DNA of 64,000 nucleotides from Deltaproteobacteria bacterium (GCA_032128375.1 JAQBGU010000232.1:3106-67105); one strand, 5' to 3'; numbered from the stretch's first letter, positions 195 through 19,840 are shown. Notes: generated by a model from the letters alone, not told the origin. Made by a program: numbers and translations.

Positions 195-483
195 GAGTCG
201 CGACCTTTTCATCAAAGGTTTCATCAACATCAGCATGAACTCGTGTTTTCCAACGGGGTGACCAGCGCTGTTCCAGCGACTCCGATAATGTTCATAGCAG
301 CACACCATGATGCAAGTCAACTGCAAGAATCGTACCTATAGTGCGCAAGCCCCTCGAACTCACCCAAACTCCGATTCCCTCACAAAGCGGGTCATCCCAC
401 CCGGGAATGTGTGAAATCCCCTGGCTACACGCGCGCGATTTTGACCCCCGCAAGCCCCGGGTCCCGACGCCAGGAAACCACTC

Positions 484-499
484 GGGCACGGCTGTTGCA
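484..499 (+). promoter_or_regulatory. sigma-54 -24/-12 promoter candidate for the REC/kinase/GT operon
   Basis: GGGCACGgctgTTGCA matches TGGCACG-N4-TTGCW. The GG-N10-GC spacing is exact and only the first T is replaced. It lies 50 nt upstream of ATG 549 in the correct orientation. Confidence 0.5.
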
Positions 500-548
500 T
501 GGTCGATTAGAGTGGCTCGGCTTGGTGCCGGGGAAAGGCGGCTGACGC

Positions 549-914
549 ATGTATGACATGTATGAAGAGCGGCGTGTCCTGATCGTCGAAGATGAGGAGC
601 GCTTGCGTTGCTACCTCGCCATGTCCCTCGAAGACTGGGGCGTACAGGTGGAGCAGGCGGGATCGTTGGCAGAAGCCCACGCCTTACTTGCGCTCCACCA
701 TTTCGACGCCGTAGTGCTCGACGTCGGGCTTCCGGACGGCGATGGGCTGACCCTCCTCGAGCATTCGCCCGCGGATCGTGCACTGGTCATCACCGCCAAC
801 CCCGATCCGGTGCGCTTCGCTACGAGTGGCGTTATGCACCACCTCACCAAGCCGATAGACCTTCCGCAGTTCGTGCGCGAGGTCCAGAGCTTGGCGAGCG
901 CGGGGTCAAAATGA
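549..914 (+). CDS. stand-alone response-regulator receiver (CheY-like)
   Basis: 121 aa. RVLIVEDEE..., acceptor context VVLDVGLPDGDG, later VITANPD and LTKP form the REC signature. The stop overlaps the next start (ATGA at 911-914). Confidence 0.85.
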   Translation: MYDMYEERRVLIVEDEERLRCYLAMSLEDWGVQVEQAGSLAEAHALLALHHFDAVVLDVGLPDGDGLTLLEHSPADRALVITANPDPVRFATSGVMHHLTKPIDLPQFVREVQSLASAGSK

Positions 915-2830
915 TGAGCCTGCGCTCGAAGCTGATCCTCTCTTTCATGGCCTTCGCCTCCCTGCTGCTGCTGGTGGGTTTGACTTCGCTCTACCTCAAC
1001 CGGGCGGTACAAGCGGATGTCGCGGACCTCCGCGCCAGTCAAGGCGTCGACTTCCGGCACATCGACATCGGCAACGTCGGGCTGGAAATCGAAGGGTTCT
1101 GGGATCCGGGCGGCAAGTTCGTGGCGGGCGATGCCCAGGTCATCCCAGTCGTACGTCGCCCGAAGCTGCGCGGGGCGATACAGGATATCGATACCAGTCG
1201 GCGAACGATTACGCTGTATGGTGTAGACATATCCGTGGGTCCGGAAACCGATTTCGTCGGCGGGCAGCGGCTAGAAGATCTGAAACTCGGCCAGCGTGTC
1301 GAGGTGAGCAGTCGTGTGACCGAAGGTCGCTGGGCAGCTCGGAAGATCAAGACCGACAACGTGAAGGCCAGCGACAAGATCAAGAGCATGGCCACTTCGG
1401 CTGAGCTCGACGGCGAAGCGCCCGAGACAATCTGGTTCGACGGCATCGAGGTGACAATCGCGCCGCAGAACAACACCTCTCCCAACGGAGCATTGCGACG
1501 CGTCGAGCTGGCTACACAGATGACCCTGTTGCTGCAGGAATGCCGTGCCGAAGCACACGGGCTCGTTGGACGTAGGCTCGTCCCGAGTGACATCGACGAT
1601 CTCTACGATCCCGACGCCGATGAAGGGCTTCCAGCGACGACCGATGAGCAGTTGGTTCGCCATGAACGGAACTTTGAATACTATCTGGAGCAATCGCAGC
1701 TGGCCGGTGGAGCAGATTCCGATGTGCTAACGCCGTTGATACATCGGATGATGGCGATGCGGGCCCCATTTCGAGAGCAGCTGATAACGCTTCAAGGGCT
1801 CGTGCGAAGCGACGCCATCGGCGCGCGCGCGTTTCTTGATCAAAGCTTCGATCCGTTCGTCCAGAACGATCTGCTGCCGATCGTGTACGCCTACCGGACA
1901 GAGGCCGAAGAAGCGCTGGCGAGCCGTCTGCAGCTCATTGCATCGCGGACCGAAACAACCACTCAGGTGGCGCTCGTGACCAGCGGCGTCGCAATCATAC
2001 TGGCCATCGTGCTCGGGGTCGCGTTGTGGAGATCGATCCGCGCGCCGATCGGTGCGTTAGTCACCGCGGCGCTGCACCTGGGTAAGGGGCATATGGAAAC
2101 ACGCGTCGATGTCCGTTCCCAAGATGAATTTGGCGTGCTCGCACGAGCCTTCAACCAGATGGCAGACGATCTCGCGACAACGACACTCTCGGTGAGCGAG
2201 AAGGAGCTGTTGCTGCGCGAGGTGCATCACCGGGTCAAGAACAACATGCAGGTGATCTCGAGTTTGTTGTCGATTCAGTCGAGCCACACCAACAACCCGC
2301 AAGTACGAGAACAGTTCGAACAGTGTCAGAGCCGCATTCGCTCGATGGCTATGATTCACGAACAACTGCACAGCGCGTCGAACCTTTCCGAACTCGACAT
2401 GAGCGCGTATCTCGAGTTGCTGACGACGCAGCTGATGCGCTCGTCGGATCGTCATGCGCGCATCACTCTCGATCTGCAGCTCGAACCTCTGGTGAGCGAC
2501 GTCGACCAGGCCGTGGCCTGCGGCTTGATCGTGAACGAACTCGTGACCAATGCGTTGAAACACGCATTTCCGGATGACAAGTCCGGCGAGATTCGTGTCT
2601 CGATGTTCCGGGACAGTCGCGGTGACCGGATTTTGTCAGTAGAAGACAATGGCTGCGGTATCCCCGAGGACATCGACATCGAGCACCTGACCGGCGCCGG
2701 TCTGCCGCTCGTAGAAAAGCTGGCGCGGCAGTTTTCCGGGCGTGTGGTGTTCGATCGCGAGGTCGGTTCGAAGGGGACTTCAGTACGGATCGTCTTTCCC
2801 GAGAGCGCATCCGGAGGCGACCCAGCATGA
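911..2830 (+). CDS. membrane sensor histidine kinase (HisKA_2/HWE-type) with periplasmic DUF5666-like domain and HAMP
   Basis: Real start is the MMSLRSKLILSF... ATG at 911; the upstream 608 extension is Arg/Pro-rich shadow. It has two TM helices and a HAMP (RSIRAPIGAL...FNQMADDL). The H-box EVHHRVKNNMQVISSLLSIQ is typical of HisKA_2. The HATPase part shows NELVTNALKHAF, DNGCGIP and GLPLVEKL. Confidence 0.85.
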   Translation: MMSLRSKLILSFMAFASLLLLVGLTSLYLNRAVQADVADLRASQGVDFRHIDIGNVGLEIEGFWDPGGKFVAGDAQVIPVVRRPKLRGAIQDIDTSRRTITLYGVDISVGPETDFVGGQRLEDLKLGQRVEVSSRVTEGRWAARKIKTDNVKASDKIKSMATSAELDGEAPETIWFDGIEVTIAPQNNTSPNGALRRVELATQMTLLLQECRAEAHGLVGRRLVPSDIDDLYDPDADEGLPATTDEQLVRHERNFEYYLEQSQLAGGADSDVLTPLIHRMMAMRAPFREQLITLQGLVRSDAIGARAFLDQSFDPFVQNDLLPIVYAYRTEAEEALASRLQLIASRTETTTQVALVTSGVAIILAIVLGVALWRSIRAPIGALVTAALHLGKGHMETRVDVRSQDEFGVLARAFNQMADDLATTTLSVSEKELLLREVHHRVKNNMQVISSLLSIQSSHTNNPQVREQFEQCQSRIRSMAMIHEQLHSASNLSELDMSAYLELLTTQLMRSSDRHARITLDLQLEPLVSDVDQAVACGLIVNELVTNALKHAFPDDKSGEIRVSMFRDSRGDRILSVEDNGCGIPEDIDIEHLTGAGLPLVEKLARQFSGRVVFDREVGSKGTSVRIVFPESASGGDPA

Positions 2831-4944
2831 CCGCACTGAGCATGAACGACCACAACATGACCGAGCGAAACATCAACGAACGGGGCATGAACAATCAGAG
2901 CATGACCGAGCGAAGGATCGAGGATCAGCGCACCAGCGAGCGGTGCATTCTCATCGTCGAAGATGAGCCCATCGTCCAGCTTCATTTGCAGCTGATCGTG
3001 GCCGAGGCGGGGCACCGCGTCAGCGCCACCGCCAGCAGCGCACAGGAGGCATTCGAAGCGGCCGACCGCGAGCCCCCGGAGCTGGTGTTGATGGACATTC
3101 AGCTACAGGGCGATCTGGACGGTATCGCCGCTGCCCGTATCTTGAGCGCCAAATACGACTGCCCAGTGATCTTCACGACGGCCCATACCGACTCGGAAAC
3201 GGTCGCACGTACCCGAGATGTCGGCCCTTCGGGGTACATCACCAAGCCGTTTACCAGCACCGATGTCCGCGCTGCCATCAACACCGCCTTCGCAAGCCAC
3301 GATCGGATGAAAGCGGCCGAAAAGCGAGAAAACTCGCTCGTTTCGATCCTTCGCACCATGGACGAAGGAGTCTTGACAACGGACGAGCAGGGCGCGATCT
3401 CGTTCTGGAACCTGCGAGCCAGCCAGCTCACTGGCTGGGAGGCCGACGATGCCATTGGCCGGGATTTGTTCGAGGTGGTGCAGTTCGCTGCCGCCGGCGA
3501 CGATGAAACATTCCGATCGGCTGCATCGTTTGCGCTCTCCAACAGGCAACCGCGGTCCATTCCGCGGGTCTCGATTGTAGGACGCGACGGGGCAGCGCGA
3601 GGCGTGGGCATCGATATCGAGCCTACGGGTGCCCACGGCCAGCAGGCCACCGGCTTGGTCGTGAGGCTTCGCGAGCGCACTGAACCGCGTCGTCCAGCAA
3701 TCACCACGGCTCCGATGAAGACGCGCTTCGGCAGCGGCACGCGGATGCTCCTGTACTCCCATGACACCTTCGGCCTCGGCCACCTGCAGCGCTGCTCCAA
3801 CATCATCCGCGCTCTACTCGCGCGCAATCCAGGGCTGTCGGTACTGCTCGTTACCGGCTCGTCTGTGGCGCATCGGTTCGAGCTGCCCGCCGGAGCCGAC
3901 TACGTGAAACTTCCGGCCGTGCGCAAGGTGGGCTCCGATCGCTACGAAGCCCGTTCGTTGGCAATGCCCGATTCTGGTGTAATGACCCTGCGCAGCAACC
4001 TGCTGTTTCGCACGGTCCGCGACTATGAGCCCGATGTTCTGCTCGTCGACCACTCGCCGGTCGGGATGAATGATGAACTGCTCCCGACGCTCGAGATGCT
4101 GCAACGCAGGGGCGGTTGCACGACCCTCCTCGGGTTGCGGGATATCATCGATGACCCGACTGCCGTCGTGAATCTCTGGAAGGAAAAACGCATTTACGAC
4201 GTCCTGCGCAACTTGTACGACCATATCCTCGTCTACGGTGCGCAGTCCGTTTACGACACGGTGTCTGCGTACGAATTTCCGGACGATCTGGCCGCAAAAA
4301 CTTCCTTTGTGCACTACGTATGCGATTCGAGGGAGCCGGACGACCCGGAACCTTTTTCACCTGGTGGTGCCGAACCGCTCGTCGCGGTCTCGATCGGCGG
4401 TGGAGATGGGGGCGCCGATGCGGTGATCGGGACCTATCTCGACATGCTCGAGCAATTCCGATCGCAGATCGACTTCCGCAGCGAGATCGTAACCGGGCCA
4501 CTCTTGCCCCTCGAAGCCCAAGAGCGATTCCGCAAGCGAGCGCTCGGGCTGCCGGTCACCATTCGCGAATTCGTCCCGTCGACGACGCCACTATTTCGCA
4601 GCGCGGACCTCGTGGTCTCGACCGGTGGCTACAACACTGTGACTCAGCTGCTCTCGCACGCGCGACGCGCCTTGATCATCCCGCGCGTTCTGCATCGCCA
4701 CGAACAGCTCATCCGCGCGCGCCACCTCGCGAAACTCGGACTCGTAGGTTGTATCCATCCGCTGGAGATCGATCCGGAGCTCATGTTCGACGCGGTTCGG
4801 TCGGCTCTCGACACCGATGAGCAGGCGCTCTCGCGCGGTCGAGAGTTGGGAATCGTTCCGCTCGATGGCGCCGATCGCGTGGCGGAATTTTGCAGCCGCC
4901 TGGAAGTTTCGGCGCGACAGAATCTGAACCGAGGTGCACAGTGA
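2827..4944 (+). CDS. REC - PAS - glycosyltransferase (GT28-C/MurG-like, COG4671-type) fusion protein
   Basis: ATGA overlap with the kinase stop. REC spans aa ~40-155 (ILIVEDEP, LVLMDIQL, FTTAHTD, YITKPF). PAS spans aa ~165-285 (ILRTMDEGVLTTDEQGAISFWN...TGW). The GT domain starts at aa ~305 (MLLYSHDTFGLGHLQRCS...LVTGS...VSTGGYNTV). The GT family assignment is from memory of the motif. Confidence 0.8.
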   Translation: MTALSMNDHNMTERNINERGMNNQSMTERRIEDQRTSERCILIVEDEPIVQLHLQLIVAEAGHRVSATASSAQEAFEAADREPPELVLMDIQLQGDLDGIAAARILSAKYDCPVIFTTAHTDSETVARTRDVGPSGYITKPFTSTDVRAAINTAFASHDRMKAAEKRENSLVSILRTMDEGVLTTDEQGAISFWNLRASQLTGWEADDAIGRDLFEVVQFAAAGDDETFRSAASFALSNRQPRSIPRVSIVGRDGAARGVGIDIEPTGAHGQQATGLVVRLRERTEPRRPAITTAPMKTRFGSGTRMLLYSHDTFGLGHLQRCSNIIRALLARNPGLSVLLVTGSSVAHRFELPAGADYVKLPAVRKVGSDRYEARSLAMPDSGVMTLRSNLLFRTVRDYEPDVLLVDHSPVGMNDELLPTLEMLQRRGGCTTLLGLRDIIDDPTAVVNLWKEKRIYDVLRNLYDHILVYGAQSVYDTVSAYEFPDDLAAKTSFVHYVCDSREPDDPEPFSPGGAEPLVAVSIGGGDGGADAVIGTYLDMLEQFRSQIDFRSEIVTGPLLPLEAQERFRKRALGLPVTIREFVPSTTPLFRSADLVVSTGGYNTVTQLLSHARRALIIPRVLHRHEQLIRARHLAKLGLVGCIHPLEIDPELMFDAVRSALDTDEQALSRGRELGIVPLDGADRVAEFCSRLEVSARQNLNRGAQ
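2840..2929 (+). repeat. 45-bp direct repeat x2 (15-aa repeat) in the N-terminal extension of the REC-PAS-GT gene
   Basis: GCATGAACgaccacaaCATGACCGAGCGAAacatc is followed by GCATGAACaatcagagCATGACCGAGCGAAggatc. It encodes SMNDHNMTERNINER / GMNNQSMTERRIEDQ. There are five in-frame ATGs in the first 26 codons. Confidence 0.7.
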
Positions 4945-4952
4945 CAGAGCCG

Positions 4953-6173
4953 ATGCGTATCGGGTACGTCGTCAAGCGGTATCCGCGTTACTCGGAGACA
5001 TTCATCGTAAACGAAGTCCTCGCCCACGAGGCTGCCGGAACGCACATCGAAATTTTCTCACTGAGGCCACCCTGCGATACGCACTTTCAGGACGTCATTG
5101 CGAGAGTCCGTGCCCCCGTCCACTACCTACCACACGCCGGACTCAAGGTGCGTGACTTCTGGGAGGCGTTGTCGCGAGCGCAAAAGCGGCTACCGGGACT
5201 CCCCGACGGACTCGAACAGGCGTGGGGAAACGACGTTACCGAGGTTCACCAGGCGGTGGAACTCGCTAACCGCGTCCACGAGCTGGGCCTCGTGCACCTT
5301 CACGCACACTTCGCCACCTCACCTGCCAGCGTTGCACGCTTGGCGGCGCGTTTCGCTGGCATCACATTCAGCTACACCGCTCACGCAAAGGACATCTTCC
5401 ACGAGGATGTCGACCCACTGGAACTCCGGACAAAACAGCGCGACGCGGCGTCCGTGATCACAGTGAGTGATTTCAACGCGCGGCACCTCCGGGAACTCGA
5501 CTCTGAATCCGCCGAGCATGTGACCCGGATCTACAATGGTCTCGATCTCGACAAATTCCAATTCGACTCACCTGCGGTGCGCCCGCTGCGGATCGCTGCA
5601 GTGGGCCGTCTGGTCGAAAAAAAGGGATTCAGCGACCTGATCGACGCTTGCTGGGAACTGGTGAACGGCGGGCTCGAGGTCGACTGTCGGATTCTTGGAG
5701 CCGGCCCCCTCGAGCCGGAACTCCGCGAACAAATCGAAAAGCTGGGGCTTGGCGCCAGAGTTGTGCTGACCGGGCCCCAACCCCAAAACATCGTCCGTGA
5801 GGAACTCCGGGCTGCCGCCGTATTCGCGGCGCCCTGTGTGGTCGCTGCCGACGGCAACCGAGATGGTCTACCCACGACCTTGCTCGAGTCGATGGCGATG
5901 GGGACGCCCTGCATCTCGACCAATGTGACTGGCATTCCGGAAATGATTCAGCATGAGCGAACGGGATTGATCGTGCCGCAGCATGACCCTACCGCACTCG
6001 CTTGTGCCATTAGGCGGCTCCTCGGTGACCCGGTCGAACGGGTCAGACTCGCGACGCAGGCGCGTCAGCTGATCGAAGAAGAATTCGACGTCGTACGCAA
6101 CACAGCGATTCAGCGCGAAATATTTCAATCGGCCTCGCGTACGGGTCGCGTTGCGGAAGGATCCGCGCACTGA
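4953..6173 (+). CDS. glycosyltransferase family 4 (WcaL-like)
   Basis: MRIGYVVKRYPRYSETFIVNEV... N-terminus. GT1-fold C-terminal motifs are VGRLVEKKG, DGLPTTLLESMAMGTPCISTNVTGIPE and E..TGLIV. An alternative GTG start at 4941 overlaps the upstream stop (GTGA). Confidence 0.8.
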   Translation: MRIGYVVKRYPRYSETFIVNEVLAHEAAGTHIEIFSLRPPCDTHFQDVIARVRAPVHYLPHAGLKVRDFWEALSRAQKRLPGLPDGLEQAWGNDVTEVHQAVELANRVHELGLVHLHAHFATSPASVARLAARFAGITFSYTAHAKDIFHEDVDPLELRTKQRDAASVITVSDFNARHLRELDSESAEHVTRIYNGLDLDKFQFDSPAVRPLRIAAVGRLVEKKGFSDLIDACWELVNGGLEVDCRILGAGPLEPELREQIEKLGLGARVVLTGPQPQNIVREELRAAAVFAAPCVVAADGNRDGLPTTLLESMAMGTPCISTNVTGIPEMIQHERTGLIVPQHDPTALACAIRRLLGDPVERVRLATQARQLIEEEFDVVRNTAIQREIFQSASRTGRVAEGSAH

Positions 6174-7360
6174 TGCGCATCGCATTCGTCTCTGCCGACC
6201 CCGGCGTTCCGATTTACGGACGCAAGGGCTGCTCGAATCACGTTCAGGAAGTGGTCCGGGCGCTCACAAGGTCGGGCGTCGAGGTCGAGATCCACAGTCC
6301 GCGATTGGAGGGCACTCCTCCTCCCGGACTTGCCGACGTGCGGACGTTTGCGCTTGCGCGCTGCGCCAAAGGCGACTCGAGCGCCCGCGAAACCGCGTTG
6401 ATCGGCGCGAATGCTCAACTCGAGATCAACCTGCAATCCCGCGACGCATACGACGCCGTGTACGAGCGACATTCGATCTGGAGCACCGCCGGCATGTCGT
6501 TCGCGCGGTCGGCTGGAATCCCAGGCATCCTCGAAGTCAACTCACCGCTGATCGAGGAGCAAGCAGCGCATCGAAGCCTCGTCCACCGAGACGTCGCCGA
6601 GAAAATGGTGGAGCAAGCGATCCAGTCTGCATCCCATCTGATCGTAGTATCGAAGGGGGTCGCGGAGTACGTCGAACGCTTCGACGTGGATCGGGATCGC
6701 ATTCATGTGCTGCCAAACGGTGTAGATACGGAACGCTTCTCACCCTGCGAGTCCCGAGGATCACCGCGCAATCAGTTCACGGTGGGCTTCGTCGGAACAC
6801 TGAAACCATGGCACGATCTGCTGACGCTGGTGCGGGCGTTCGGGTCGCTTCGAGACCGCTGCACAGAGAATGCCGAGTGCCGCCTGCTCATCGTTGGCGA
6901 TGGGCCCGAGCGCGAACGGCTGACGAGCGCCCTGGCCGACCTGGGCCTGTTGGACTCTGTCCACTTCACCGGCTCGGTGGACCCTGCGGATGTCCCACGC
7001 TGGATGGACGAGATGGACGTCGGTGTCGCGCCGTATCCCGCCGAGGGTGATTGTTATTTCTCTCCACTCAAGATCTTTGAATACATGGCAGCGGGTTTGC
7101 CGGTCGTCGCGAGCCGCATCGGACAGATCCCGGAGTTGATCGAAGATGGACAAACCGGGCTGCTGTGGCCGCCCGGCGACCATGAAGCACTTGCATCGAT
7201 CCTCGATGGACTGCGCACGGATCCCCTCCAGCGCGCGCAGCTCGGACGCCGGGCGCGGGCCAAAGCCGTGCAAGCGCACACCTGGGACAGCGTGGTCGCA
7301 AAGACTTTGCAGCTCTCCGGCCTCACTGACACGGATTCGATCCCCCGCGATGCGAACTGA
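6173..7360 (+). CDS. glycosyltransferase family 4
   Basis: MRIAFVSADPGVPIYGRKGCSNHVQE... with FVGTLKPWHD, SPLKIFEYMAAGLPVVASRIGQIPELIEDGQTGLL (E-x7-E type GT4 motif). The start overlaps the previous stop (TGATG). Confidence 0.85.
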   Translation: MRIAFVSADPGVPIYGRKGCSNHVQEVVRALTRSGVEVEIHSPRLEGTPPPGLADVRTFALARCAKGDSSARETALIGANAQLEINLQSRDAYDAVYERHSIWSTAGMSFARSAGIPGILEVNSPLIEEQAAHRSLVHRDVAEKMVEQAIQSASHLIVVSKGVAEYVERFDVDRDRIHVLPNGVDTERFSPCESRGSPRNQFTVGFVGTLKPWHDLLTLVRAFGSLRDRCTENAECRLLIVGDGPERERLTSALADLGLLDSVHFTGSVDPADVPRWMDEMDVGVAPYPAEGDCYFSPLKIFEYMAAGLPVVASRIGQIPELIEDGQTGLLWPPGDHEALASILDGLRTDPLQRAQLGRRARAKAVQAHTWDSVVAKTLQLSGLTDTDSIPRDAN

Positions 7361-7449
7361 AATGTCGGGGGCCGAAAAAATCCACGAAAGCGTACCGGTC
7401 CCGCGTGCCGGCCGAGTCGCAGAGACCGGGTCGCACGGCGCACTCTTGA

Positions 7450-8799: not shown

Positions 8800-8821
8800 G
8801 CATCGGAAGAGAATTTCCACG

Positions 8822-11580: not shown

Positions 11581-11632
11581 TGCTCGAGAGCAGCGGCAGC
11601 GGCTGAAATGCGGCATCAGATGACCTGATGGG

Positions 11633-11648
11633 TGCAATTGGAGTGCCA
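11633..11648 (-). promoter_or_regulatory. sigma-54 -24/-12 promoter candidate for the porin gene
   Basis: Minus strand reads TGGCACTccaaTTGCA, a full match to TGGCAC-N5-TTGCA. It lies 53 nt upstream of ATG 11580. Confidence 0.6.
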
Positions 11649-11792
11649 GGTCACTGCGATCGGCACGGGGACCGCTGGCTCGAATCGAGTCCCCATCCGC
11701 GTGAAATCGCGCGGTACGCCGTCAGATCGCGCGATCGCAAGAGCGTCCTGCAACCTGAGGCGCACGTCGGAACTATTCGGCCATATCCGGTG

Positions 11793-11808
11793 CGGCACGC
11801 GTTTTGCA
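11793..11808 (+). promoter_or_regulatory. sigma-54 -24/-12 promoter candidate for the PEP-CTERM/LTD-like gene
   Basis: CGGCACGcgttTTGCA has exact GG-N10-GC spacing. It lies 51 nt upstream of ATG 11859. Confidence 0.5.
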
Positions 11809-11858
11809 ATCGGAAGATCATCAGCAGGCAGGTGAGACTTTCTTGGGGAAATGAGTCA

Positions 11859-14216
11859 ATGAATGGAAATCGATGTTGGCGGTCAATTGGCAGCTGCGCA
11901 CTTCTCGTGTCCCTTTTGCTATGTGTCGGCGGTAACACAGCGGCTGCGCCGCCCGATCATCCGGTGATTACCGAGGTGTTTCAAGAGCCTCTGGCAACAG
12001 GTGGCCCGGTGGGACGCAATCCATCAGACCCCCACCAGGAGTTCATCGAGATCTATCTCCCCCCACTTTCCGACCTCGCACCCGGCCTCAACAAGGACGC
12101 ACTGAATCTGGCGTTCTACGAGATCGACGGCGATAGCTCCAGCCCCAGCTTGACGCGTGTGAACTACCGCATCGACCTTCCCGCTTTCGACCTTGATCCA
12201 AGTAACGGTCTGACTGGCCTACCGCGACCCCCAAGTGGATTGGTCGTGCTCGGTTGGGTGGACTACGTCGGTAATCCCGCCACGGATCTGAAGGGGACTC
12301 CGGGTTCGCGGGTGGCACTGGTCAATCATGGCGTCACGTCGACTGCGGACTATACGTTCATCGCTATCAATGGCGACCAGTTTTCGGGCACGACGAACTT
12401 CCCGGTCCCGGTGGCGATCTCTCACCTGGACCTGATCTCCGATCCGGTGACTGGAAAAATCGAGCAGGGCTCCTCGGTCTACCTTCTGGTCAACCGCGAT
12501 GCACCGGGATACGCCGAAGTTTGTGGTTTTTCCGACCCTGCAGTCTGCAACGACTTCCCCAACCTGCCGGGCGGAACGATCCTCGGGGTGTCGAGCCTGT
12601 TGGACGGTTTTGCCGGCAACGACGACACCGATTTCCTCGTCGATGATCAGCCGACCGACCCAGCCGACAGTACTGTCATCGATCACGAGTTCGTTTTGCC
12701 AATAGGCGGAGCTTTCAGTCTGCTCGTCCCCCAGGTCGCCGAGGAATTCGACGGTTACCAGCGCTGGTTCTTGGACTTCGTGAAGACCACCGAAGACGGC
12801 ATCGCGGGCAATCAGGATCCCGCACTAGACGCGATGAATGGGTACCTCACCGTCTCGAATTTGGGACCGTTCGTACCGACGCCGGGATCGGTGCCCTCTT
12901 CAAACAGCCCCGCCGCTTTGCAACTGGCTCTCCCAGCCCTTCAGATGTTCGACGTCTTGACCAACACCCAGGCATTTCCAGGCCTCGTGGCCGCCAACGC
13001 GGGTGGCAATTTCGGCATCAATATCCTCGCGACACCGGGGAGTTCGAACAATCCATCCGCCATGGGGCTGTCAGCCGGCATGTCGTCTTTCGGCGCGATC
13101 GGGCAATCCGCGATCTCTCCGATCGTGGCGGTCGAGACGTTCGAAAGCACGCCAGCCGGCCACACCCAGATTGTCGGTGTGACGGTCGCAGCGACTAACG
13201 GGGCGCCGTCGGATCCGCCGCTAGTCAACCCCTTTGGCATCGCGATCGCTTTCTACACCGCGATCAATCCGACGACGGGCCTTGACGCGCTCGGGGCACC
13301 GCTGCAGGCGACGGCGTTCGTGGCCATCCAGGGCTTACCCGATCAGGCGAGTGTTGCGAACGAGTTCGCCGCCACGAGCCTGGGTCAATTGATGGCTAGC
13401 CAACTTGGAATCAGTGTTTTCGACACGCGGGGCAACGGCGCTGCGTTGGTCAATCCGGCTACCAATCTTGCGAACGGGCTGGTCTTGGGACCCATGGTCG
13501 CGACTATTCCCACAAACCCGGCGCTTTTCATCAATCCCATCGGCGCCACAGGCAGTCTCGTTTCGACCGTGCTCGGCTCCGCGGAGGTAGTTTCCGGGAA
13601 GACCACCTACAACAACAGCTTCAACGTGGCCAAAACCCTGGTCCAAGCGCGCGAATTCCCGATCCACGAGACTTCGACAACGGGCGGTTTTACCCCGACT
13701 GAGTTCATCCACTACGCCGATGCCACGGGCAAGGCTGGGGACCCCTCGAGCGGGTTGACCGGTGTGCTGACGGGCCGCAGCTTCCAATTGGCACTCATCG
13801 ACACGAATCGGTCGGTCACCGGCTTCCTCGAATCGGGTGCAACGGACGATTTTGGTCTGGTCGTCGAGGTTGGCCAAACACACCCCGGGGCCTCGGTCGT
13901 TCCCGGAGAGTTCGTCTTTCTGAGTCTGATGGGGGGGCTCGAGGGTGCCGATATCGATTCGCTCGACGTGCCGCCGTTCGGCAATCAGACAAACGTGATC
14001 TATCTGGACCTCAGTCCGCTCGACACTGTGATCGGCGTGAAGACTGTCTCGCGGCTATTTGTCGTCGATGGCAGCGGCGGCGGTGAGGTGGACGTCATGG
14101 ACGTGATCGCGCTACCGGAGCCGCACGCGGTGCTCACATTGTTGATCGGCGCAATCCTCTTGTCGCTGATGGCGCGACACCGAGGCGTGAGCGATCAGCC
14201 GGTTCACTCCAGGTAG
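11859..14216 (+). CDS. large secreted PEP-CTERM protein with N-terminal lamin-tail-domain-like segment
   Basis: Start MNGNRCWRSIGSCALLVSLLLCVGGNTAAAP (signal peptide). HPVITEVFQEP...HQEFIEIYLP resembles an LTD. C-terminus ALPEPHAVLTLLIGAILLSLMARHR is a PEP motif, TM helix and basic cluster. The rest is Gly/Ser/Thr/Asn-rich. Confidence 0.75.
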   Translation: MNGNRCWRSIGSCALLVSLLLCVGGNTAAAPPDHPVITEVFQEPLATGGPVGRNPSDPHQEFIEIYLPPLSDLAPGLNKDALNLAFYEIDGDSSSPSLTRVNYRIDLPAFDLDPSNGLTGLPRPPSGLVVLGWVDYVGNPATDLKGTPGSRVALVNHGVTSTADYTFIAINGDQFSGTTNFPVPVAISHLDLISDPVTGKIEQGSSVYLLVNRDAPGYAEVCGFSDPAVCNDFPNLPGGTILGVSSLLDGFAGNDDTDFLVDDQPTDPADSTVIDHEFVLPIGGAFSLLVPQVAEEFDGYQRWFLDFVKTTEDGIAGNQDPALDAMNGYLTVSNLGPFVPTPGSVPSSNSPAALQLALPALQMFDVLTNTQAFPGLVAANAGGNFGINILATPGSSNNPSAMGLSAGMSSFGAIGQSAISPIVAVETFESTPAGHTQIVGVTVAATNGAPSDPPLVNPFGIAIAFYTAINPTTGLDALGAPLQATAFVAIQGLPDQASVANEFAATSLGQLMASQLGISVFDTRGNGAALVNPATNLANGLVLGPMVATIPTNPALFINPIGATGSLVSTVLGSAEVVSGKTTYNNSFNVAKTLVQAREFPIHETSTTGGFTPTEFIHYADATGKAGDPSSGLTGVLTGRSFQLALIDTNRSVTGFLESGATDDFGLVVEVGQTHPGASVVPGEFVFLSLMGGLEGADIDSLDVPPFGNQTNVIYLDLSPLDTVIGVKTVSRLFVVDGSGGGEVDVMDVIALPEPHAVLTLLIGAILLSLMARHRGVSDQPVHSR

Positions 14217-16138
14217 CCGAGCGCACGCAGCTGTTCGATGCTGGATGGAGCGAGTGACTGGCGCTCCGGGCGCGCCCTTTCGTGCAGCGCCATCCGCTGG
14301 AGCCAGCTCTCGAGGCTCGCCCGGAACTCCGTGACGCGCGCCATCTCGCGGGTCGCGACGTCGACCTGCTCGGTCGGATCGCGCGCGATGTCGAAGAGCT
14401 CCTCTGTCGAAGGCGGTGCTCCCGAACAGAGCAGCCACTTTGGAGCGAACGGGTCGTTCTGCGCTGGCGTCGACGAGGGTTCGGTTTTCTCAGCCTCGGC
14501 CGACTGCTTGATGCGCGTGTCGGTTGTCACGACGACGTTCGCGTTCCCGACGTGCAACTTGACTTGTTTGTCGGAAAGCTCCTCGATCCGATCGACGATG
14601 CCCTCGATCTCATCGTCATGAGGCTCGGCACCCAGCTTCTCGAGTTTGTCTGCCTCGATCGAGCGCTGCTTTCCGGCCTTTCCTTCCACTTTGACCCATT
14701 GCCCGACCGCAAGAGTGGCGATGAGCGGCTGCCCCTCGGCCGTAAGCAGGTCCTCTCCGGCGATCACAAAGCCGTGGACGTGCAAAGTGTTCTTGCGTGC
14801 GTCGATCGACTCGATCGCACCGACGAGTTCGACGTCGTCGTCGCCCGGGTCCTTGAAGCTCAGCTTCGATGCACGCATTGTCCCGTCGCCATCAAAAACC
14901 CCCTTCGCCTTCACCCGCACACCGACTCCGAGTCCCGATACACCGATCTTTCCCTCGGCAGCGTGGCTGGAACGCGCCGCTTTGTATGTACGAACGTACT
15001 TCCAGTCACCGCGTCGGACCGAGACACGGTAAACACGCTTATGTCTTGTCTCAGCGACGATCTCGGGCTCGGCGTCGGTCGCGAGCAGCAGATTGCGTCC
15101 CTCGAGATCGGGTGGCGCCGCGACACCCGCGGTACCCAACAGCGTCGGAAACACGTCGATAAGCCGTGCCGGCTCGCTCACCCAACCCACCCGCGTCATC
15201 TTCGGGAGCCTGATCATGAGCGGGATATCGATCACTTCTCGATACAGCGTACCGCCGTGTCCAACGTGCCCGTGGTCGAGCAGTTCCTCGCCGTGGTCCG
15301 ACGTGAGCAAGACGACGGTCTGATCCAACAAATTGCGCTTTCTGAGGTTGCCGAGCAACAGACCGATCTGGTGATCGAGTTGCGCAATGGCCCCATCCTG
15401 CCGGGAGGCGAGCTCTGCGATGTCGGCGTCGGACAGCGTGATGGTTCCGTCATTGATGGAGTTGCGCAGACCCGTCCAGCTGCCGCGATCGAATACACTC
15501 CCCGGAAGCAAACCGGGAAATCGACTGCGGAAAGGCTCGTCTGGCTGAAACGGCCAATGCACGTCGAGGTAATGGAGATAGGCGAAGAAGGGCTGCTCGC
15601 GATCCTGGTCGAGGAATTCGAGGAATTTCTGGTTGATCTCGGATGCGGGCATCTCGCTCTGCTCGTACCGGTCGAAACCCTGGGAAAAACCCTGATTGGC
15701 GGCCAGGTGGGCGTTGTTTGCGAGACCGATGGTCTGGTAACCCCCAGCGCTGAATACTTCTGCGAGTGTGGTGTAGTCCTCCGCGAGGACATCGGATTCG
15801 AGGTTCCCCGCTGCCGCGTGCGCCTCGCCCTCGTACACTCCGTGCTGAATCGGGTAGAGCGAGGTGAACAGGGTTGGGATCGAGGGCTTGGTCCACGGCG
15901 ACTGCGCGAACATCTTGCGAAAGACGATGCTCTCGGCCGCGAGCGAGTCGATGTTGGGAGAGGTGGGTTTGGTGTATCCGTAGTAGCCGAGATGGTCAGA
16001 TCTGAGTGCATCGATGAGCAGCACCAGCACGTTCGGCTGATCCGCGCGCGCGCTGTGCGGCGTGATCAAGACCCATGTCGTGAGTGCAATACCGGCAAAG
16101 TAGAGGGTACACCACTGCTTCCGCACTACGTTACGCAC
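14204..16138 (-). CDS. sulfatase-like alkaline-phosphatase-superfamily enzyme (Thr-type) with inserted DUF5666-like modules
   Basis: Signal peptide, metal site LVLLIDALRSDHLGYYGY, nucleophile region SPWTKPSIPTLFTSLYP (T-x-P-S-I instead of C/S-x-P-x-R), and LTSDHGEELLDHGHVGHG. Residues ~395-545 form a repeated OB-like insertion before the terminal ELFDIARDPTEQ...LRALGYLE. GTG start at 16138 or 16126. Confidence 0.8.
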   Translation of the reverse strand: MRNVVRKQWCTLYFAGIALTTWVLITPHSARADQPNVLVLLIDALRSDHLGYYGYTKPTSPNIDSLAAESIVFRKMFAQSPWTKPSIPTLFTSLYPIQHGVYEGEAHAAAGNLESDVLAEDYTTLAEVFSAGGYQTIGLANNAHLAANQGFSQGFDRYEQSEMPASEINQKFLEFLDQDREQPFFAYLHYLDVHWPFQPDEPFRSRFPGLLPGSVFDRGSWTGLRNSINDGTITLSDADIAELASRQDGAIAQLDHQIGLLLGNLRKRNLLDQTVVLLTSDHGEELLDHGHVGHGGTLYREVIDIPLMIRLPKMTRVGWVSEPARLIDVFPTLLGTAGVAAPPDLEGRNLLLATDAEPEIVAETRHKRVYRVSVRRGDWKYVRTYKAARSSHAAEGKIGVSGLGVGVRVKAKGVFDGDGTMRASKLSFKDPGDDDVELVGAIESIDARKNTLHVHGFVIAGEDLLTAEGQPLIATLAVGQWVKVEGKAGKQRSIEADKLEKLGAEPHDDEIEGIVDRIEELSDKQVKLHVGNANVVVTTDTRIKQSAEAEKTEPSSTPAQNDPFAPKWLLCSGAPPSTEELFDIARDPTEQVDVATREMARVTEFRASLESWLQRMALHERARPERQSLAPSSIEQLRALGYLE

Positions 16139-16209
16139 TTGTTCCGCACTTGTTCCGCACTACGTTCCGTACTTGTTCCGCACTTGTTCGGCATTATGTT
16201 CCGCACAAC
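16119..16209. repeat. tandem array, 8 units of 11-12 bp (TTCCGCACTTG/TTCCGCACTACG), 34-bp higher-order unit
   Basis: Read directly: TTCCGCACTACG TTACGCACTTG TTCCGCACTTG | TTCCGCACTACG TTCCGTACTTG TTCCGCACTTG | TTCGGCATTATG TTCCGCACAAC. It overlaps the first codons of the sulfatase-like gene and fills the divergent intergenic region. Confidence 0.85.
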
Positions 16210-16277
16210 AAAACCCTGTTTCGAATCCGAACCGATGATCATGATGCCCGAAGCATAGCGATCCCGAAAGGAATAAA

Positions 16278-16943
16278 TTGAGCGCAATTCAATCGAGTGT
16301 ACGAGCGACCATCTGTATTTGCCTTTGGCTCCTGGTCACAGGCTCGGGTTGTGCACTTTTCCAGACGGCAAGCCCGACAGGCGGTCAGATCCGATGGGCG
16401 GGACGGGTTGACTTCGACGCGCTCGATGGTCGACTCGCGTTTCGACTCGAGCCATCCGCGAACGGAGTGCGTGTCAAAGATGGAGCCGGCGCCGTTCTGC
16501 TCTCGCTGCGACTCCGAGATGAGACCCTGGTAATCGACAATTCGCTCGGGAAGCCAATCGGCGTCGTGGTTCCGCCGGAACAGGCGGGAGGGCGCTATCG
16601 CATATTGTCTTCCGATGATCGGGCGCTCTTGTTCGAGCTACGTCTAGAGCCGGACGGCGATCTCGAGGTCATCGATGAGAACGGCAAGGTGATCAACGAG
16701 GCCAAACGACGTGGTTATGGATTCAAAGTCGTCGACGAGAGCGGCGAGATGTCGTCGAAGATCCGAATATCAGAGAACAAGATCTCGCTGAGCGACGCCT
16801 CGAGCACGACCTATCTTTCGACGCGAGACCCAATGCCGGCTGTGTCAGCGGCAGCCATCGCGTTCGAAGGTCTCAAATTCCAGTATGCGGTTGCGTTCGC
16901 CGTGGCGATTGCTCACTGGGCACAGCCGGCAATGATCAGGTGA
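16278..16943 (+). CDS. hypothetical lipoprotein
   Basis: 221 aa with TTG start. Lipobox LLVTGSGC after a hydrophobic segment. No recognisable domain. Confidence 0.6.
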   Translation: MSAIQSSVRATICICLWLLVTGSGCALFQTASPTGGQIRWAGRVDFDALDGRLAFRLEPSANGVRVKDGAGAVLLSLRLRDETLVIDNSLGKPIGVVVPPEQAGGRYRILSSDDRALLFELRLEPDGDLEVIDENGKVINEAKRRGYGFKVVDESGEMSSKIRISENKISLSDASSTTYLSTRDPMPAVSAAAIAFEGLKFQYAVAFAVAIAHWAQPAMIR

Positions 16944-18294
16944 GGTCGAACTTGTCTAGTCGGTAGCGCAGCGTATCGCGGGTGAGGCCGAGCAACGCAG
17001 CGGCACGCGTTCGGTTGCCATCGGCGCGTTCCAGGGCCTGACGAATCATTTCGCGCTCGAGTTCCGCGAGGTTGATTCCACCTTCGGGTAGCGCGAATGG
17101 GCCAGTATCAGAGGCCTCCACGTGCGGCCTTCGCAATCCGGCGAAGGCAGTGGGGCCCAGAATGTCGGTGGGTTCGAGCAGGATGGATCGTTCGATTACG
17201 TTGCGCAGCTCGCGCACATTTCCAGGCCAGGGGTAGCTCTGCAGTTCACGCTCCCCGTCCGGACTGAGTTCGACCTTGCGTCCGTAGAGCTGGCCGATCT
17301 CGTGACAGAAATGTCTGGCGAGAAGGGGAATATCGTCGGCGCGCGACCGCAGAGGTGCGATCTCGAAGGAGAGCACGCGCAGTCGATGCAGCAGGTCATT
17401 GCGGAACTCGCCGTCTTCGACTGCGACGTCGAGATCGCGGTTGGTTGCAGCCATCACATGCACATTCATCGCCCGATCGACTGACGATCCGAGTCTCCTG
17501 ACACGCTTGTCTTCGAGCACCTTGAGCAGCTTCGCCTGAAGTTCCAGCGGAGCATGTCCAATCTCGTCGAGGAAGATGCTCCCGCCTTCACCTGCTTCGA
17601 AGAGTCCCGTGCGACTGGTCTTGGCGTCGGTGAAGGTTCCTCGCTCGTGACCGAAGAGTTCAGCTTCGACCAGCGATGCGGGAAAGGCAGTACAATTCAT
17701 TTCAATGAACGGTCCGCCCCCCAGAAGCTCGTGGATGGCGCGCGCGACGATGCCCTTTCCGGTGCCTGTTTCGCCGGTGAGCAATACGGCCGGGCGTCGG
17801 CCGGGTGGTAGACCTGCCTCCTTCAGGCGCTCTATCTGGGAGAAAATCTGAAGCACGCCCGGGTCGCTTCCGACGATTCCAGCCGGCAGAGCGCGACCTC
17901 GAGCGCGGTGATAAGCCAATTCCCGATCGCGTCGTTGGCGCGAGACTACGCGGTCTACCAGCAGTTGCAGCTCGTCGAGGTCGAGCGGCTTCTGCAGATA
18001 GTCCACAGCCCCACGCCTCATTGCCTCGACGGCGTCGCCCACGGTGCCGTGGGCGGTCATCAATACGACCGGTATCTCGGCATCAATTTCCTGAATCTCT
18101 GAAAGCACCTCTAGCCCCGAGCAATCAGGGAGGCGTAGATCGAGGAGCACGAGATCCGGGGCGACCTTGCCAGCCGCTGCAACGCCATCGGCGCCCAACT
18201 CGGCGACGTGCACCTGGTGGCCGCCGCTCTCGAGCGTCCGCGCAATCTGACGGCGCAACAGGGGTTCGTCTTCGATGACCAATATTGAGGGCAT
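16936..18294 (-). CDS. sigma-54-dependent response regulator (NtrC family enhancer-binding protein)
   Basis: REC (ILVIEDEPLL, LVLLDLRLPD, LQKPL). AAA+ with Walker A GETGTGKG, GAFTGA-variant ERGTFTDA, FLDEIG and RVMAATNRDL. C-terminal Fis-type HTH AAALLGLTRDTLRYRLDKF. Confidence 0.9.
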   Translation of the reverse strand: MPSILVIEDEPLLRRQIARTLESGGHQVHVAELGADGVAAAGKVAPDLVLLDLRLPDCSGLEVLSEIQEIDAEIPVVLMTAHGTVGDAVEAMRRGAVDYLQKPLDLDELQLLVDRVVSRQRRDRELAYHRARGRALPAGIVGSDPGVLQIFSQIERLKEAGLPPGRRPAVLLTGETGTGKGIVARAIHELLGGGPFIEMNCTAFPASLVEAELFGHERGTFTDAKTSRTGLFEAGEGGSIFLDEIGHAPLELQAKLLKVLEDKRVRRLGSSVDRAMNVHVMAATNRDLDVAVEDGEFRNDLLHRLRVLSFEIAPLRSRADDIPLLARHFCHEIGQLYGRKVELSPDGERELQSYPWPGNVRELRNVIERSILLEPTDILGPTAFAGLRRPHVEASDTGPFALPEGGINLAELEREMIRQALERADGNRTRAAALLGLTRDTLRYRLDKFDLT

Positions 18295-18303
18295 AACATG
18301 AAC

Positions 18304-18636
18304 CTACCACGTGTGGGCATAGCCCGCGCGGATGGGGATTGGCTCGGACTGTGGATCCGGCTGGATCGCTACACGCGCCCGCGGCAATAGGGGCTCAAGC
18401 AACCTCGTAGGAATCGGCTGCTCGTCGGGTCGCACACCCGGCGCGTTCGCCAGCCGATCCATCGCAACCTGGATCGAGATCGTGATGAGCGCGTCGACAT
18501 AGCCCTCGTCTCCCGGGCCAGCCCGGATCAGCGCATGGGCGCGGCATGAGAGTTTCACTTTGCGGGAACTCGAGCCGTTCGGAACGCGACGTGTAAGGGA
18601 TACCTTACCACTCCGCGAATGGCCCAATGACCCCAT
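18304..18636 (-). CDS. hypothetical small protein upstream of the NtrC-like gene (weak)
   Basis: 110-aa ORF ending 9 nt before the activator start. The central part has GC-rich third positions consistent with coding. No domain recognised. Confidence 0.3.
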   Translation of the reverse strand: MGSLGHSRSGKVSLTRRVPNGSSSRKVKLSCRAHALIRAGPGDEGYVDALITISIQVAMDRLANAPGVRPDEQPIPTRLLEPLLPRARVAIQPDPQSEPIPIRAGYAHTW

Positions 18637-18674
18637 TTCGGGATGCGAGCCCGCGGAAAGCTGTGAGGGATTGC

Positions 18675-18710
18675 CTTACCTTCAATAGGTAATTGTCCAT
18701 TAATAGGTAA
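18675..18710. promoter_or_regulatory. candidate upstream activator sites (palindrome plus direct repeat) in an AT-rich island
   Basis: TTACCT-N6-AGGTAA palindrome at 18675-18692 and direct repeat AATAGGTAA at 18684-18692 and 18702-18710. They lie 105-140 bp upstream of the sigma-54 match at 18815. Confidence 0.35.
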
Positions 18711-18814
18711 ATGTTTTCTCCTGGTGGTTTCAGCCTTCGCCACGAGATTCACCTCTTGTCACCAAGTAGCTGGAACTAAAGGGTTTCCGCCAGGGTCGGA
18801 GTTTTCTACAGAGA

Positions 18815-18830
18815 TGGTACGAATTTTGCT
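18815..18830 (+). promoter_or_regulatory. sigma-54 -24/-12 promoter candidate for the small PEP-CTERM gene
   Basis: TGGTACGaattTTGCT matches TGGYACG-N4-TTGCW with exact spacing. It lies 93 nt upstream of ATG 18923 and is divergent from the NtrC-like gene. Confidence 0.6.
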
Positions 18831-18922
18831 TCGTAATTTGCGAGCAAGGGTCCGGACGCTAGTCCGTAGCGAAGCCCTCGCTATTTCTCCGCAGCAGCGA
18901 AGAATTGAGGAGCATAAGGAAC

Positions 18923-19666
18923 ATGCGAAGCAGCTTCGGCTTTCTCGGCGCAGCTTTGGTGATCCTGGGAGCTGGCTCGGCCCAGGCGACCCCAATCAGC
19001 GTCGATCAGATCATCTATGAAAGTGCGCTGGGTACCCTGGTCGATCCGTCGGCGCTGAGTGGGACGATCGACGTGACGGCCCTCGGCAACACCCTGACCA
19101 TCCTTCTGACGAATACGTCGCCGGATGCTGCCTTCGTCGGTGGCGGTGCGCCGGCGACGATGCTGCTCACGGGTTTCGGGATCCAGCTCGGAAACCTCGA
19201 CATCGTCAGTGGAGTCGTCACGGTCAATGGTGGATCGAGCGCTCTGAATTTCGGCGCGCAAGCTACGCCGGATATCTCGAACCAATGGCTCTTCGCGAAT
19301 CAGTCGATCGACGGGTACAGCTCGATTCTCGGTGTGCTTGCTGTGGATACCGTCACGTCAACGGTCCATAACGGCACAGGAACACGCTTCGCGGGCCCTC
19401 CTCCGCCCACCCTCGATGGCCCGAATTTCGGGGCGCTCAGCGCCTTCGAAACCGAGTTTGGCGCTTCTACCGCGGGTGTCCAGGATACCATCCAGCTTGT
19501 GCTGACTCTTGATGGTCTTGCACCGACACCGGGCGCGATCGACGCGGGGAATGTCGTCCTGGCGTTCGGATCTCCTGAAGCCCTCGCAGGGGTACCGGAG
19601 CCGGGCACGGGACTGCTCCTGAGCGCAGGCCTGGTCGGATTGGCGTGGCGCAAGCGCAGGAAATGA
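18923..19666 (+). CDS. small secreted PEP-CTERM protein
   Basis: Start MRSSFGFLGAALVILGAGSAQA (signal peptide; GAGGAG/AAGGA upstream). C-terminus GVPEPGTGLLLSAGLVGLAWRKRRK is a canonical PEP-CTERM. Confidence 0.8.
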   Translation: MRSSFGFLGAALVILGAGSAQATPISVDQIIYESALGTLVDPSALSGTIDVTALGNTLTILLTNTSPDAAFVGGGAPATMLLTGFGIQLGNLDIVSGVVTVNGGSSALNFGAQATPDISNQWLFANQSIDGYSSILGVLAVDTVTSTVHNGTGTRFAGPPPPTLDGPNFGALSAFETEFGASTAGVQDTIQLVLTLDGLAPTPGAIDAGNVVLAFGSPEALAGVPEPGTGLLLSAGLVGLAWRKRRK

Positions 19667-19698
19667 CGGCCTGGAGACAGGACACACCCTCGGCTCTC

Positions 19699-19733
19699 AA
19701 CGCCCCGACCTGTGTCGGGGCGTTTTCTCTTCT
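19699..19733 (+). terminator. rho-independent terminator
   Basis: AACGCCCCGAC-ctgt-GTCGGGGCGTT is a perfect 11-bp stem followed by TTCTCTTCT. It starts 33 nt after the stop of the PEP-CTERM gene. Confidence 0.65.
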
Positions 19734-19840
19734 GGGTATTTCACCAACCGCGACCCGATGAGCCGTCGTCAAGGCCGCGCGGAATCATCGCTCGGGAAGT
19801 ATCAGAGAGGCCCGTAGGCTCGATACAGACTTTCGCCAGG

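Follow-up and report, generated by a model that had tools for sequence, protein, structure and literature searches.

Five candidate sigma-54-dependent promoters in two groups, and a putative activator of a surface glycoconjugate gene cluster, in an uncultured Myxococcota-like lineage

The 64,000-nucleotide stretch analysed here (Deltaproteobacteria bacterium, GCA_032128375.1 JAQBGU010000232.1:3106-67105; hereafter the window, at its full length) carries at its left end a seven-gene operon of two-component, glycosyltransferase and kinase genes, a gene for an outer-membrane barrel, genes for secreted proteins with PEP-type C-terminal tails, and the gene of an NtrC-type enhancer-binding protein, referred to below as the local activator. 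We consider it probable that five sigma-54-dependent promoters serve this block and that they fall into two groups. Group A comprises the promoters of sec186 (encoding a secreted protein of 186 amino acids, aa), the seven-gene operon, the barrel gene and the gene of a 785-aa protein, and would be controlled by the local activator; group B consists of the promoter of a small PEP-CTERM gene, which probably answers to another activator. Because the group A promoters share a pair of candidate activator-binding sites and the activator gene keeps a conserved neighbourhood, a single regulon of the local activator is the most likely interpretation of this group.

When all 128,000 positions of the window were scored with a sigma-54 position weight matrix, the five top matches were -24/-12 elements upstream of these genes. 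The strongest, TGGTACGAATTTTGCT at 18815-18830 (+; 19.8 bits, rank 1), lies 93 nt before the ATG of the small PEP-CTERM gene (18923-19666, +). CGGCACGCGTTTTGCA at 11793-11808 (+; 17.1 bits) precedes the ATG of the 785-aa protein gene (11859-14216, +) by 51 nt, and TGGCACTCCAATTGCA at 11633-11648 (-; 16.8 bits) precedes that of the divergently transcribed barrel gene (9874-11580, -) by 53 nt; a signal peptide follows this ATG at 11580, and the NCBI gene call gives an alternative start at 11616. The seven-gene operon is preceded, 50 nt before its first ATG, by GGGCACGGCTGTTGCA at 484-499 (+; 14.1 bits, rank 5). These four strings and their distances to start codons had been reported from the sequence alone (the sequence-only reading) and match the sequence exactly, as do the invariant GG-N10-GC spacing and the orientation toward a start codon. 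The list of four was nevertheless incomplete, a fifth element, AGGTACGATTCTTGCA at 322-337 (-; 16.0 bits, rank 4), having been overlooked ~90 nt upstream of sec186. The translated 5' part of this gene occupies 3-230 (-) and runs past the left window edge; the element is predicted to drive sec186 as a pair with a gene for a 531-aa dockerin-like protein. GG-N10-GC is kept in all five sites, and mismatches to the TGGCAC-N5-TTGCW consensus number none or one in the first four and two in 322-337.

Scoring the window against background, a check put forward with the sequence-only reading, favoured genuine promoters: five matches of at least 14 bits were observed where 0.84 were expected, and four of at least 16 bits where 0.18 were expected, neither count being matched in any of 300 first-order Markov simulations. 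All five sites are intergenic and oriented toward a start codon 20-250 nt away, positions which make up 3.9% of the window (chance P ~9e-8), and a sigma-70 scan of the intergenic regions bearing them returned no sigma-70-like promoter. Simpler patterns were discarded as evidence: GG-N10-GC alone occurs 976 times against 967 expected and the 16-nt consensus with up to two mismatches 23 times against 22.9, both equal to chance, and with at most one mismatch the consensus occurs four times against 1.58, an excess reached in 7 of 100 shuffles and only suggestive. The earlier proposal that the whole left 19 kb is tied together was not upheld, the matrix scan finding no sigma-54 site upstream of the sulfatase, orf221 and activator genes.

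To follow these sites beyond the window, related loci (labelled L001 onwards) were collected by scanning a genome collection with the barrel protein, which gave seven, and by look-ups of homologues of the activator and of the small PEP-CTERM protein, which gave 11 more informative loci. A scan of metagenomes with the activator returned mostly paralogues of 35-42% identity, L011 and L041 being the only useful loci. Synteny was established by tblastn and every locus was scored with the same sigma-54 matrix. Sites of rank 1-3 were found at orthologous positions in L001, L004, L006, L007, L011, L041, L066, L070/L071, L072, L073, L074, L075 and L076. The divergent pair between the barrel and 785-aa genes takes the top two ranks in L001, L006 and L074 and the first and third in L075, with the rank-1 match at the place of the barrel promoter in all four; the 785-aa gene has orthologous sites in these loci and in L004. 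Operon sites are present in L004, L006, L007, L041 and L076, and that before the L006 orthologue of the first operon gene, GGGCACGGCGGTTGCA, is almost identical to the window's 484 site. Small PEP-CTERM orthologues have a rank-1 site in L066, L070/L071 and L072, a rank-3 site in L073 and a weaker one in L067 (rank 5, 10.1 bits). Upstream of an operon of activator and sec186 genes, L076 has TGGAACGATCCTTGCT (rank 1, 18.6 bits) and L011 likewise a rank-1 site. These strong sites (L076 9844-10000, L011 1275-1593) precede the activator gene itself, which in the window has none, and would mean autoregulation of the activator in L076 and L011.

GC content ranges from 42 to 72% among these loci, whose proteins are 30-79% identical to those of the window. 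Neutral intergenic sequence would not persist over such distances, hence the sites are unlikely to be neutral, and the view that the four sites listed earlier behave as real sigma-54 promoters is supported by their conservation upstream of orthologues, where they give the top or nearly top match in 12 related loci. That the matches are instead a chance product of GC-rich sequence, the genes using promoters of other types, is strongly disfavoured and in our estimate very improbable. The consensus counts at one and two mismatches would suit it, as would the result of a Pfam/NCBIfam domain search of the 64-kb window, which found no rpoN among its genes, but it has to be set against the matrix excess, the placement of all five sites in promoter-competent positions, their retention across this range of GC content and the lack of any sigma-70-like alternative in these regions.

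Two of the intergenic regions hold back-to-back promoters, with GG-to-GG distances of 149 bp between 322(-) and 484(+) and 147 bp between 11633(-) and 11793(+); in relatives the distance is 146 bp (L001), 150 bp (L006), 138 bp (L074), 116 bp (L075) and 155 bp (L076). The middle of each divergent pair is occupied by two GAWWTC cores with GC flanks, spaced 19-23 bp, and an unbiased enumeration of 10-mers in seven inter-promoter regions yielded almost only variants of GAWATCSCGC. A model of two copies of GSGSGAWWTCSSSS ~21 bp apart was scored with a symmetrised matrix built from 16 sites, all from loci other than the window. The best single matrix site in the window is 11699-11712, and nowhere else in the window is the consensus GCGSGATWTCAC of the other loci matched exactly. 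When pairs 19-23 bp apart were scanned, the first rank went to 11699/11719 (23.5 bits; P=0.005, 200 simulations) and the second to 387/409 (16.4 bits), both inside the two inter-promoter regions, which together make up 0.45% of the window. The candidate activator-binding sites are thus GCGTGAAATCGCGC and CCGTCAGATCGCGC (11699-11732), 20 bp apart and midway between the 11633 and 11793 promoters, and 387-400, 409-422 and 430-443 (the last by eye), 21-22 bp apart between the 322 and 484 promoters. Three other descriptions of the upstream sites were rejected: the strictly palindromic SSSGAWWTCSSS shows no enrichment and misses real sites, the hand-derived GTGAWATCSCSCGG at up to two mismatches occurs eight times against 5.5, and GAWATCSCSC occurs four times against 2.35, the latter two not significant.

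The putative regulator of these sites is encoded at 16936-18294 (-), where the sequence-only reading had recognised an enhancer-binding protein with REC, AAA+ and helix-turn-helix (HTH) parts; Pfam finds all three domains (Response_reg, 98.9 bits; Sigma54_activat, 179 bits, with AAA_lid_14, 75 bits; and the Fis-type HTH_8, 60.6 bits). The Walker A motif GETGTGKG, a DEIG motif and a receiver aspartate in LLDLRLPD are present, and the best matches among solved structures are 4l4u and 1ny5 (E ~1e-85), with full-length correspondence to Aquifex NtrC1. A PrsR-like identity, also suggested earlier, had to be rejected. The TIGR02915 score of 319.7 bits falls below the curated cut-off of 502.6, the AtoC (371 bits) and NtrC (354 bits) models score higher and are the best NCBIfam matches, and no equivalog model reaches its cut-off, so that by its sequence the protein is a generic NtrC-type activator. 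Its sigma-54-contacting loop reads GTFTDA, not GAFTGA. Of its 120 closest homologues (59-93% identity), 53 share GTFTDA, 51 have GSFTDA, six GAFTDA and four GSFTGA, so that G[ST]FTDA applies to 104; the F-T core is kept in 116, and no loop motif was detected in the other four. GAFTDA and GSFTGA are reported as natural loop variants compatible with activation in Desulfovibrio (PMC4641369); those are single substitutions, whereas the window's GTFTDA is a double variant.

Synteny ties this activator to the cluster. Orthologues of 65-78% identity stand beside it in four further loci with flanking genes, with the gene order of the window in L074 and L075 and an activator gene divergent from the response regulator gene in L006. 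On the 5.8-Mb contig L076, the barrel, APH, ABC, two GT4 and GT28 genes lie in that order on the minus strand, divergent from the activator, sec186 and dockerin genes, which are followed by a GAF-HisKA kinase gene and an Lnt-like gene. On the short contigs L011 and L041 the orthologue adjoins single cluster genes, being divergent from the response regulator gene in L041 and followed directly by sec186 in L011, as it is in L076.

It would be conceivable that the promoters are real and the cluster is nonetheless driven by an activator encoded elsewhere, the window's own regulating something else. Two genes without sigma-54 sites, the sulfatase gene and orf221, separate the activator from its proposed targets, and such lineages have many NtrC-type paralogues, dozens of them at 35-42% identity in the metagenome scan. 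We nevertheless regard this as improbable, since the orthologue adjoins the cluster in L006, L074, L075 and L076, and single cluster genes in L011 and L041, despite rearrangements, and since the site pair co-occurs with this activator clade. In the proteobacterial locus L007 the neighbouring activator is a more distant relative with a GAFTGA loop, and a different-looking direct repeat, GATTCTRGAC (two copies at 1625-1660, by eye), lies upstream of the sigma-54 site, which fits a site and an activator that change together. One similar copy of this repeat was seen in L041 at ~970-990.

The left flank of the window could be read on L008, which is contig JAQBGZ010000144.1 in assembly GCA_032128195.1 and whose coordinates exceed those of the window by 9452. 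It holds the rest of sec186, the gene of the 531-aa dockerin-like protein, a convergent gene for a GAF-HisKA kinase at L008 5287-7575 and an Lnt-like gene. L004 and L076 share these kinase and Lnt neighbours with L008, and in L004 they adjoin the orthologue of the 785-aa gene. Because of this conserved neighbourhood, the GAF-HisKA kinase just outside the left window edge is the best candidate partner of the local activator and probably phosphorylates it.

The small PEP-CTERM gene behaves differently. Its 247-aa product meets PF07589 (28.1 bits, cut-off 20.7) and has 51 homologues, which end in either PEP-CTERM or VPDSG-CTERM, the sorting signal being swapped within the family. The best pair of the GSGSGAWWTCSSSS type near its promoter, TGGTGGTTTCAGCC and ACGAGATTCACCTC, lies 67-86 bp upstream of the -24 element and scores -2.8 bits, only rank 196 in the window, and the pair matrix found no site pair in the upstream regions of five orthologues. 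A sigma-54 site is top or near-top upstream of orthologues in five different contexts, unrelated to the cluster; in L067 and L073 the orthologue lies near an exosortase gene and in L067 also near a PrsK/PrsR-like pair. As the site pair is missing and the orthologues keep their sigma-54 site in unrelated contexts, a different activator is more likely here. The gene has its own terminator-like hairpin and is probably a single-gene sigma-54 unit. The single regulon drawn in the sequence-only reading consequently stands in part: synteny and the cross-validated site pair link the operon, the barrel gene and the 785-aa gene to the local activator, and the small PEP-CTERM gene probably drops out of it.

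All five promoters might still form one regulon of the local activator, with 18815 using a degenerate or different site. The activator gene lies only ~520 bp from the 18815 element, the weak pair has a 20-bp spacing and thus the geometry of the two hubs, and in L075 (1400-2276) another PEP-CTERM gene (271 aa, IPEPS tail), followed by a CotH/LTD gene, has a 14.3-bit sigma-54-like site 8 kb from the activator orthologue. The low rank of that pair, its absence from all five orthologous upstream regions (0/5) and the location of the orthologues away from this activator and cluster speak for a separate group B, and so does the adjacency of the two genes, which is lost in L074, L075 and L076 and was seen only in the window genome; we judge the five-promoter regulon unlikely. 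Two further observations concern this region. At 18590-18715, 100-220 nt upstream of the 18815 promoter, the sequence is AT-rich, with CCTTAC/GTAAGG inverted repeats and two copies of AATAGGTAA; an activator specific to this promoter may bind there, or the DNA may be bent at this place. Just upstream of the activator gene and in its orientation lies a reading frame, orf110 (18304-18636, -), which matched no family and whose translation is atypical for a protein, and the 628 bp between the activator and small PEP-CTERM genes may be entirely non-coding.

Besides the lack of rpoN in the window, several points weigh against two promoter groups with group A under the local activator. The sigma-54 matrix follows the published TGGCACG-N4-TTGCW compilation with approximate frequencies. 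Divergent promoters differ somewhat in spacing from locus to locus (116-155 bp), the count of the top 10-mer was reached in 4 of 30 shuffles, and the top single-site score, 17.2 against a simulated maximum of 14.6 +/- 1.6, is not significant alone. For the upstream sites, significance is reached only by the geometry of the pairs and their location. In L076 the strongest site pair lies between the activator's own promoter and its start codon, not between the divergent promoters. In the window, finally, the activator gene has no adjacent kinase gene and lies 5-16 kb from its proposed targets.

Taken as most likely, the regulon of the local activator would work as follows. The GAF-HisKA kinase to the left of the window would phosphorylate the activator, which would then assemble on the GSGSGAWWTCSSSS sites, two or three per divergent promoter pair and about two helical turns apart. 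By hydrolysing ATP, and by means of the G[ST]FTDA loop, it would open sigma-54 holoenzyme complexes on both sides of the sites and so switch on the pair of sec186 and the 531-aa dockerin-like gene, the seven-gene operon, the Alginate_exp barrel gene and the gene of the 785-aa protein with its PEP-type tail. The operon's own two-component system may add a second, post-translational layer of control, acting on the first glycosyltransferase.

The group A genes look like a programme for the synthesis and export of a surface glycoconjugate. All operon genes lie on the plus strand. The first encodes a single-domain REC response regulator (549-914; Pfam Response_reg, gene call on L008), the second a sensor histidine kinase with DUF5666, HAMP, HisKA_2/HWE and HATPase domains (911-2830) and the third a fusion of a PhyR-like REC domain, a PAS domain and a GT28 C-terminal glycosyltransferase domain (2827-4944). 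These are followed by two GT4-family glycosyltransferases (4941-6173 and 6173-7360; all by Pfam/NCBIfam) and two APH-family kinases (7465-8799 and 8822-9910; Pfam). Judged by the pairing of families, the likelier partners of the HisKA_2 kinase are the lone REC protein and the fusion's PhyR-like REC domain, not the activator. This layer of REC and kinase genes was also seen in L001; L006 and L041 have only the single REC gene, and nothing of the layer is present in L004, L007 and L076, where the start of the operon is covered as well. In L004, L006, L007 and L076 the fusion is represented by its glycosyltransferase part alone, and the APH kinases are syntenic in L001, L003, L004, L006, L007 and L074-L076.

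The barrel (Alginate_exp, 92.5 bits in Pfam) is the last gene of the operon in L004 and L007, where the whole operon is visible, and also in L003, where the left end is cut and the 3' gene order is the same; in the lineage of the window it is inverted, with its own sigma-54 promoter. In L001 (13899-15776) and L007 (5557-7506) the second GT4 gene is separated from the first APH gene by one for an MsbA-like fused ABC exporter of 625-649 aa, ABC-exporter gene calls of 590-615 aa occupy the same place in L074-L076, and the gap at this place in L004 and L006 would fit such a gene in size. The window operon has no such exporter, as only ~100 nt are available at 7360-7465.

For the 785-aa secreted protein, labelled earlier as an LTD protein, no Pfam family was found even at E<=1, LTD (PF00932) and PEP-CTERM included. 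Nor did it show any similarity to the available N-terminal 376 aa of the LTD/CotH-annotated protein of L075, a portion which may exclude the LTD domain of that protein, and the LTD identity was rejected on both counts. Its C-terminal tail, LPEP followed by a hydrophobic stretch and RR(R), is conserved in five orthologues; in the L004 orthologue (~16800-16889) the LPEP is replaced by a Cys-containing GCG, again followed by a hydrophobic stretch and RRR.

The module of glycosyltransferases, ABC exporter, kinases and barrel was found in Myxococcota-like metagenome-assembled genomes (MAGs) and in one MAG each of Deltaproteobacteria and Rhodocyclaceae, with part of it in one of Thiomicrorhabdus, and a sigma-54-type site precedes it in every examined locus that includes the module start. 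We suggest, tentatively and with slightly less than even confidence, that glycosyltransferases, MsbA-like ABC exporter, two APH-type kinases and Alginate_exp barrel form a pathway shared across phyla, its product being an uncharacterised phosphorylated surface glycoconjugate. In the lineage of the window it would be commanded by activators of a clade not described before, characterised by the G[ST]FTDA loop and GSGSGAWWTCSSSS site pairs, at shared sites between back-to-back promoters, and a rare fusion of response regulator and glycosyltransferase would put the first sugar transfer under phosphorylation control.

The remaining genes of the left end are a sulfatase gene (14204-16138, -) and orf221 (16278-16943). 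The sulfatase contains a DUF5666 domain, as does the N-terminal region of the HisKA_2/HWE kinase (911-2830). The divergent intergenic region between the two genes is spanned by an 11-bp tandem array of TTCCGCACTTG (16119-16206; 7.7 copies, the unit being one helical turn), which looks like a regulator-binding array and at which no sigma-54-like site was found. An intrinsic-terminator-like hairpin with an 11-bp stem and a T-rich tail follows the small PEP-CTERM gene (19699-19724, +), and a 9-bp tandem repeat, GCGCAACTG (4.2 copies), lies at 19844-19893, at the 3' end of a GreA-like gene. An Rfam search of window positions 1-20000 returned zero RNA families, hence the long leaders are not known riboswitches. 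A domain search of the window proteins found neither an exosortase (Exosortase_EpsH) nor a second activator, and the other window genes are housekeeping genes, among them those for PolA, LpxD, RNase HII and an extracytoplasmic function (ECF) sigma factor.

Among the closest known systems is the PrsK/PrsR/PrsT regulation of PEP-CTERM genes in Proteobacteria. There, Haft et al. (2006) described single-gene sigma-54 PEP-CTERM units and a 17-nt motif ending in TTTACA (motif 1) ~63 nt upstream of the -24/-12 element (PMC1569441), and pepA of Aquincola was shown to be RpoN-dependent (PMC9850573). As in that system, the genes for proteins with PEP-CTERM tails lie behind long intergenic regions, in which the start codon is preceded at some tens of nt by the -24/-12 element and, another ~60 nt upstream, by an activator site, a putative one in the window; an NtrC-type REC-AAA+-Fis activator and glycosyltransferase or exopolysaccharide genes are associated with them, and the small PEP-CTERM gene is apparently a single-gene unit. 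The window differs in its activator, which scores well below the PrsR cut-off, in having no PrsK-type (HisKA_7TM) kinase, PrsT or exosortase, the conserved kinase neighbour being of the GAF-HisKA type, and in its upstream sites, which are GSGSGAWWTCSSSS pairs and not the 17-nt motif. TTTACA at ~63 nt upstream of the -24/-12 element was found in none of the window's five upstream regions, and in related loci only in L072 and L067, at inconsistent distances. The proposed targets moreover include a whole glycosyltransferase/kinase operon and an outer-membrane barrel, and the lineage is not proteobacterial, its relatives being MAGs labelled Myxococcota, Deltaproteobacteria or Spirochaetaceae.

Divergent sigma-54 promoters that share an activator site are known from Escherichia coli, where ZraR serves zraP/zraSR and FhlA serves hyc/hyp. 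The window resembles these in its back-to-back -24/-12 promoters with candidate activator sites between them, and in L076 and L011 the activator's own operon would be a target as well. It differs in that the activator gene no longer adjoins the pair and is not itself preceded by a sigma-54 promoter, and in that two divergent pairs occur in one locus. The activator shares the full-length REC-AAA+-HTH architecture of group I response-regulator enhancer-binding proteins such as NtrC1 and NtrC4 of Aquifex aeolicus and AtoC and NtrC of E. coli, and its clade departs from them in the G[ST]FTDA loop, GAFTGA being the loop of these proteins.

An enhancer-binding protein acting on sigma-54 is a standard, textbook mechanism, and to a specialist the result is useful rather than surprising. 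What is new is the membership of the regulon, the activator clade with its site model and a conserved module of uncharacterised product with a sigma-54-type site before it in every examined locus that includes the module start. An uncultured Myxococcota-like lineage thereby gains a concrete proposed regulon with five predicted promoters, a binding-site model, a putative activator and a candidate kinase. The link between sigma-54 and PEP-CTERM genes, which was drawn in 2006 for Proteobacteria, is extended to a lineage whose activator family and upstream sites are both different. A widely conserved module of glycosyltransferases, ABC exporter, kinases and barrel appears to be tightly switched and is therefore probably silent under standard conditions, and a practical way of turning it on would be to supply the activator in a constitutively active form.

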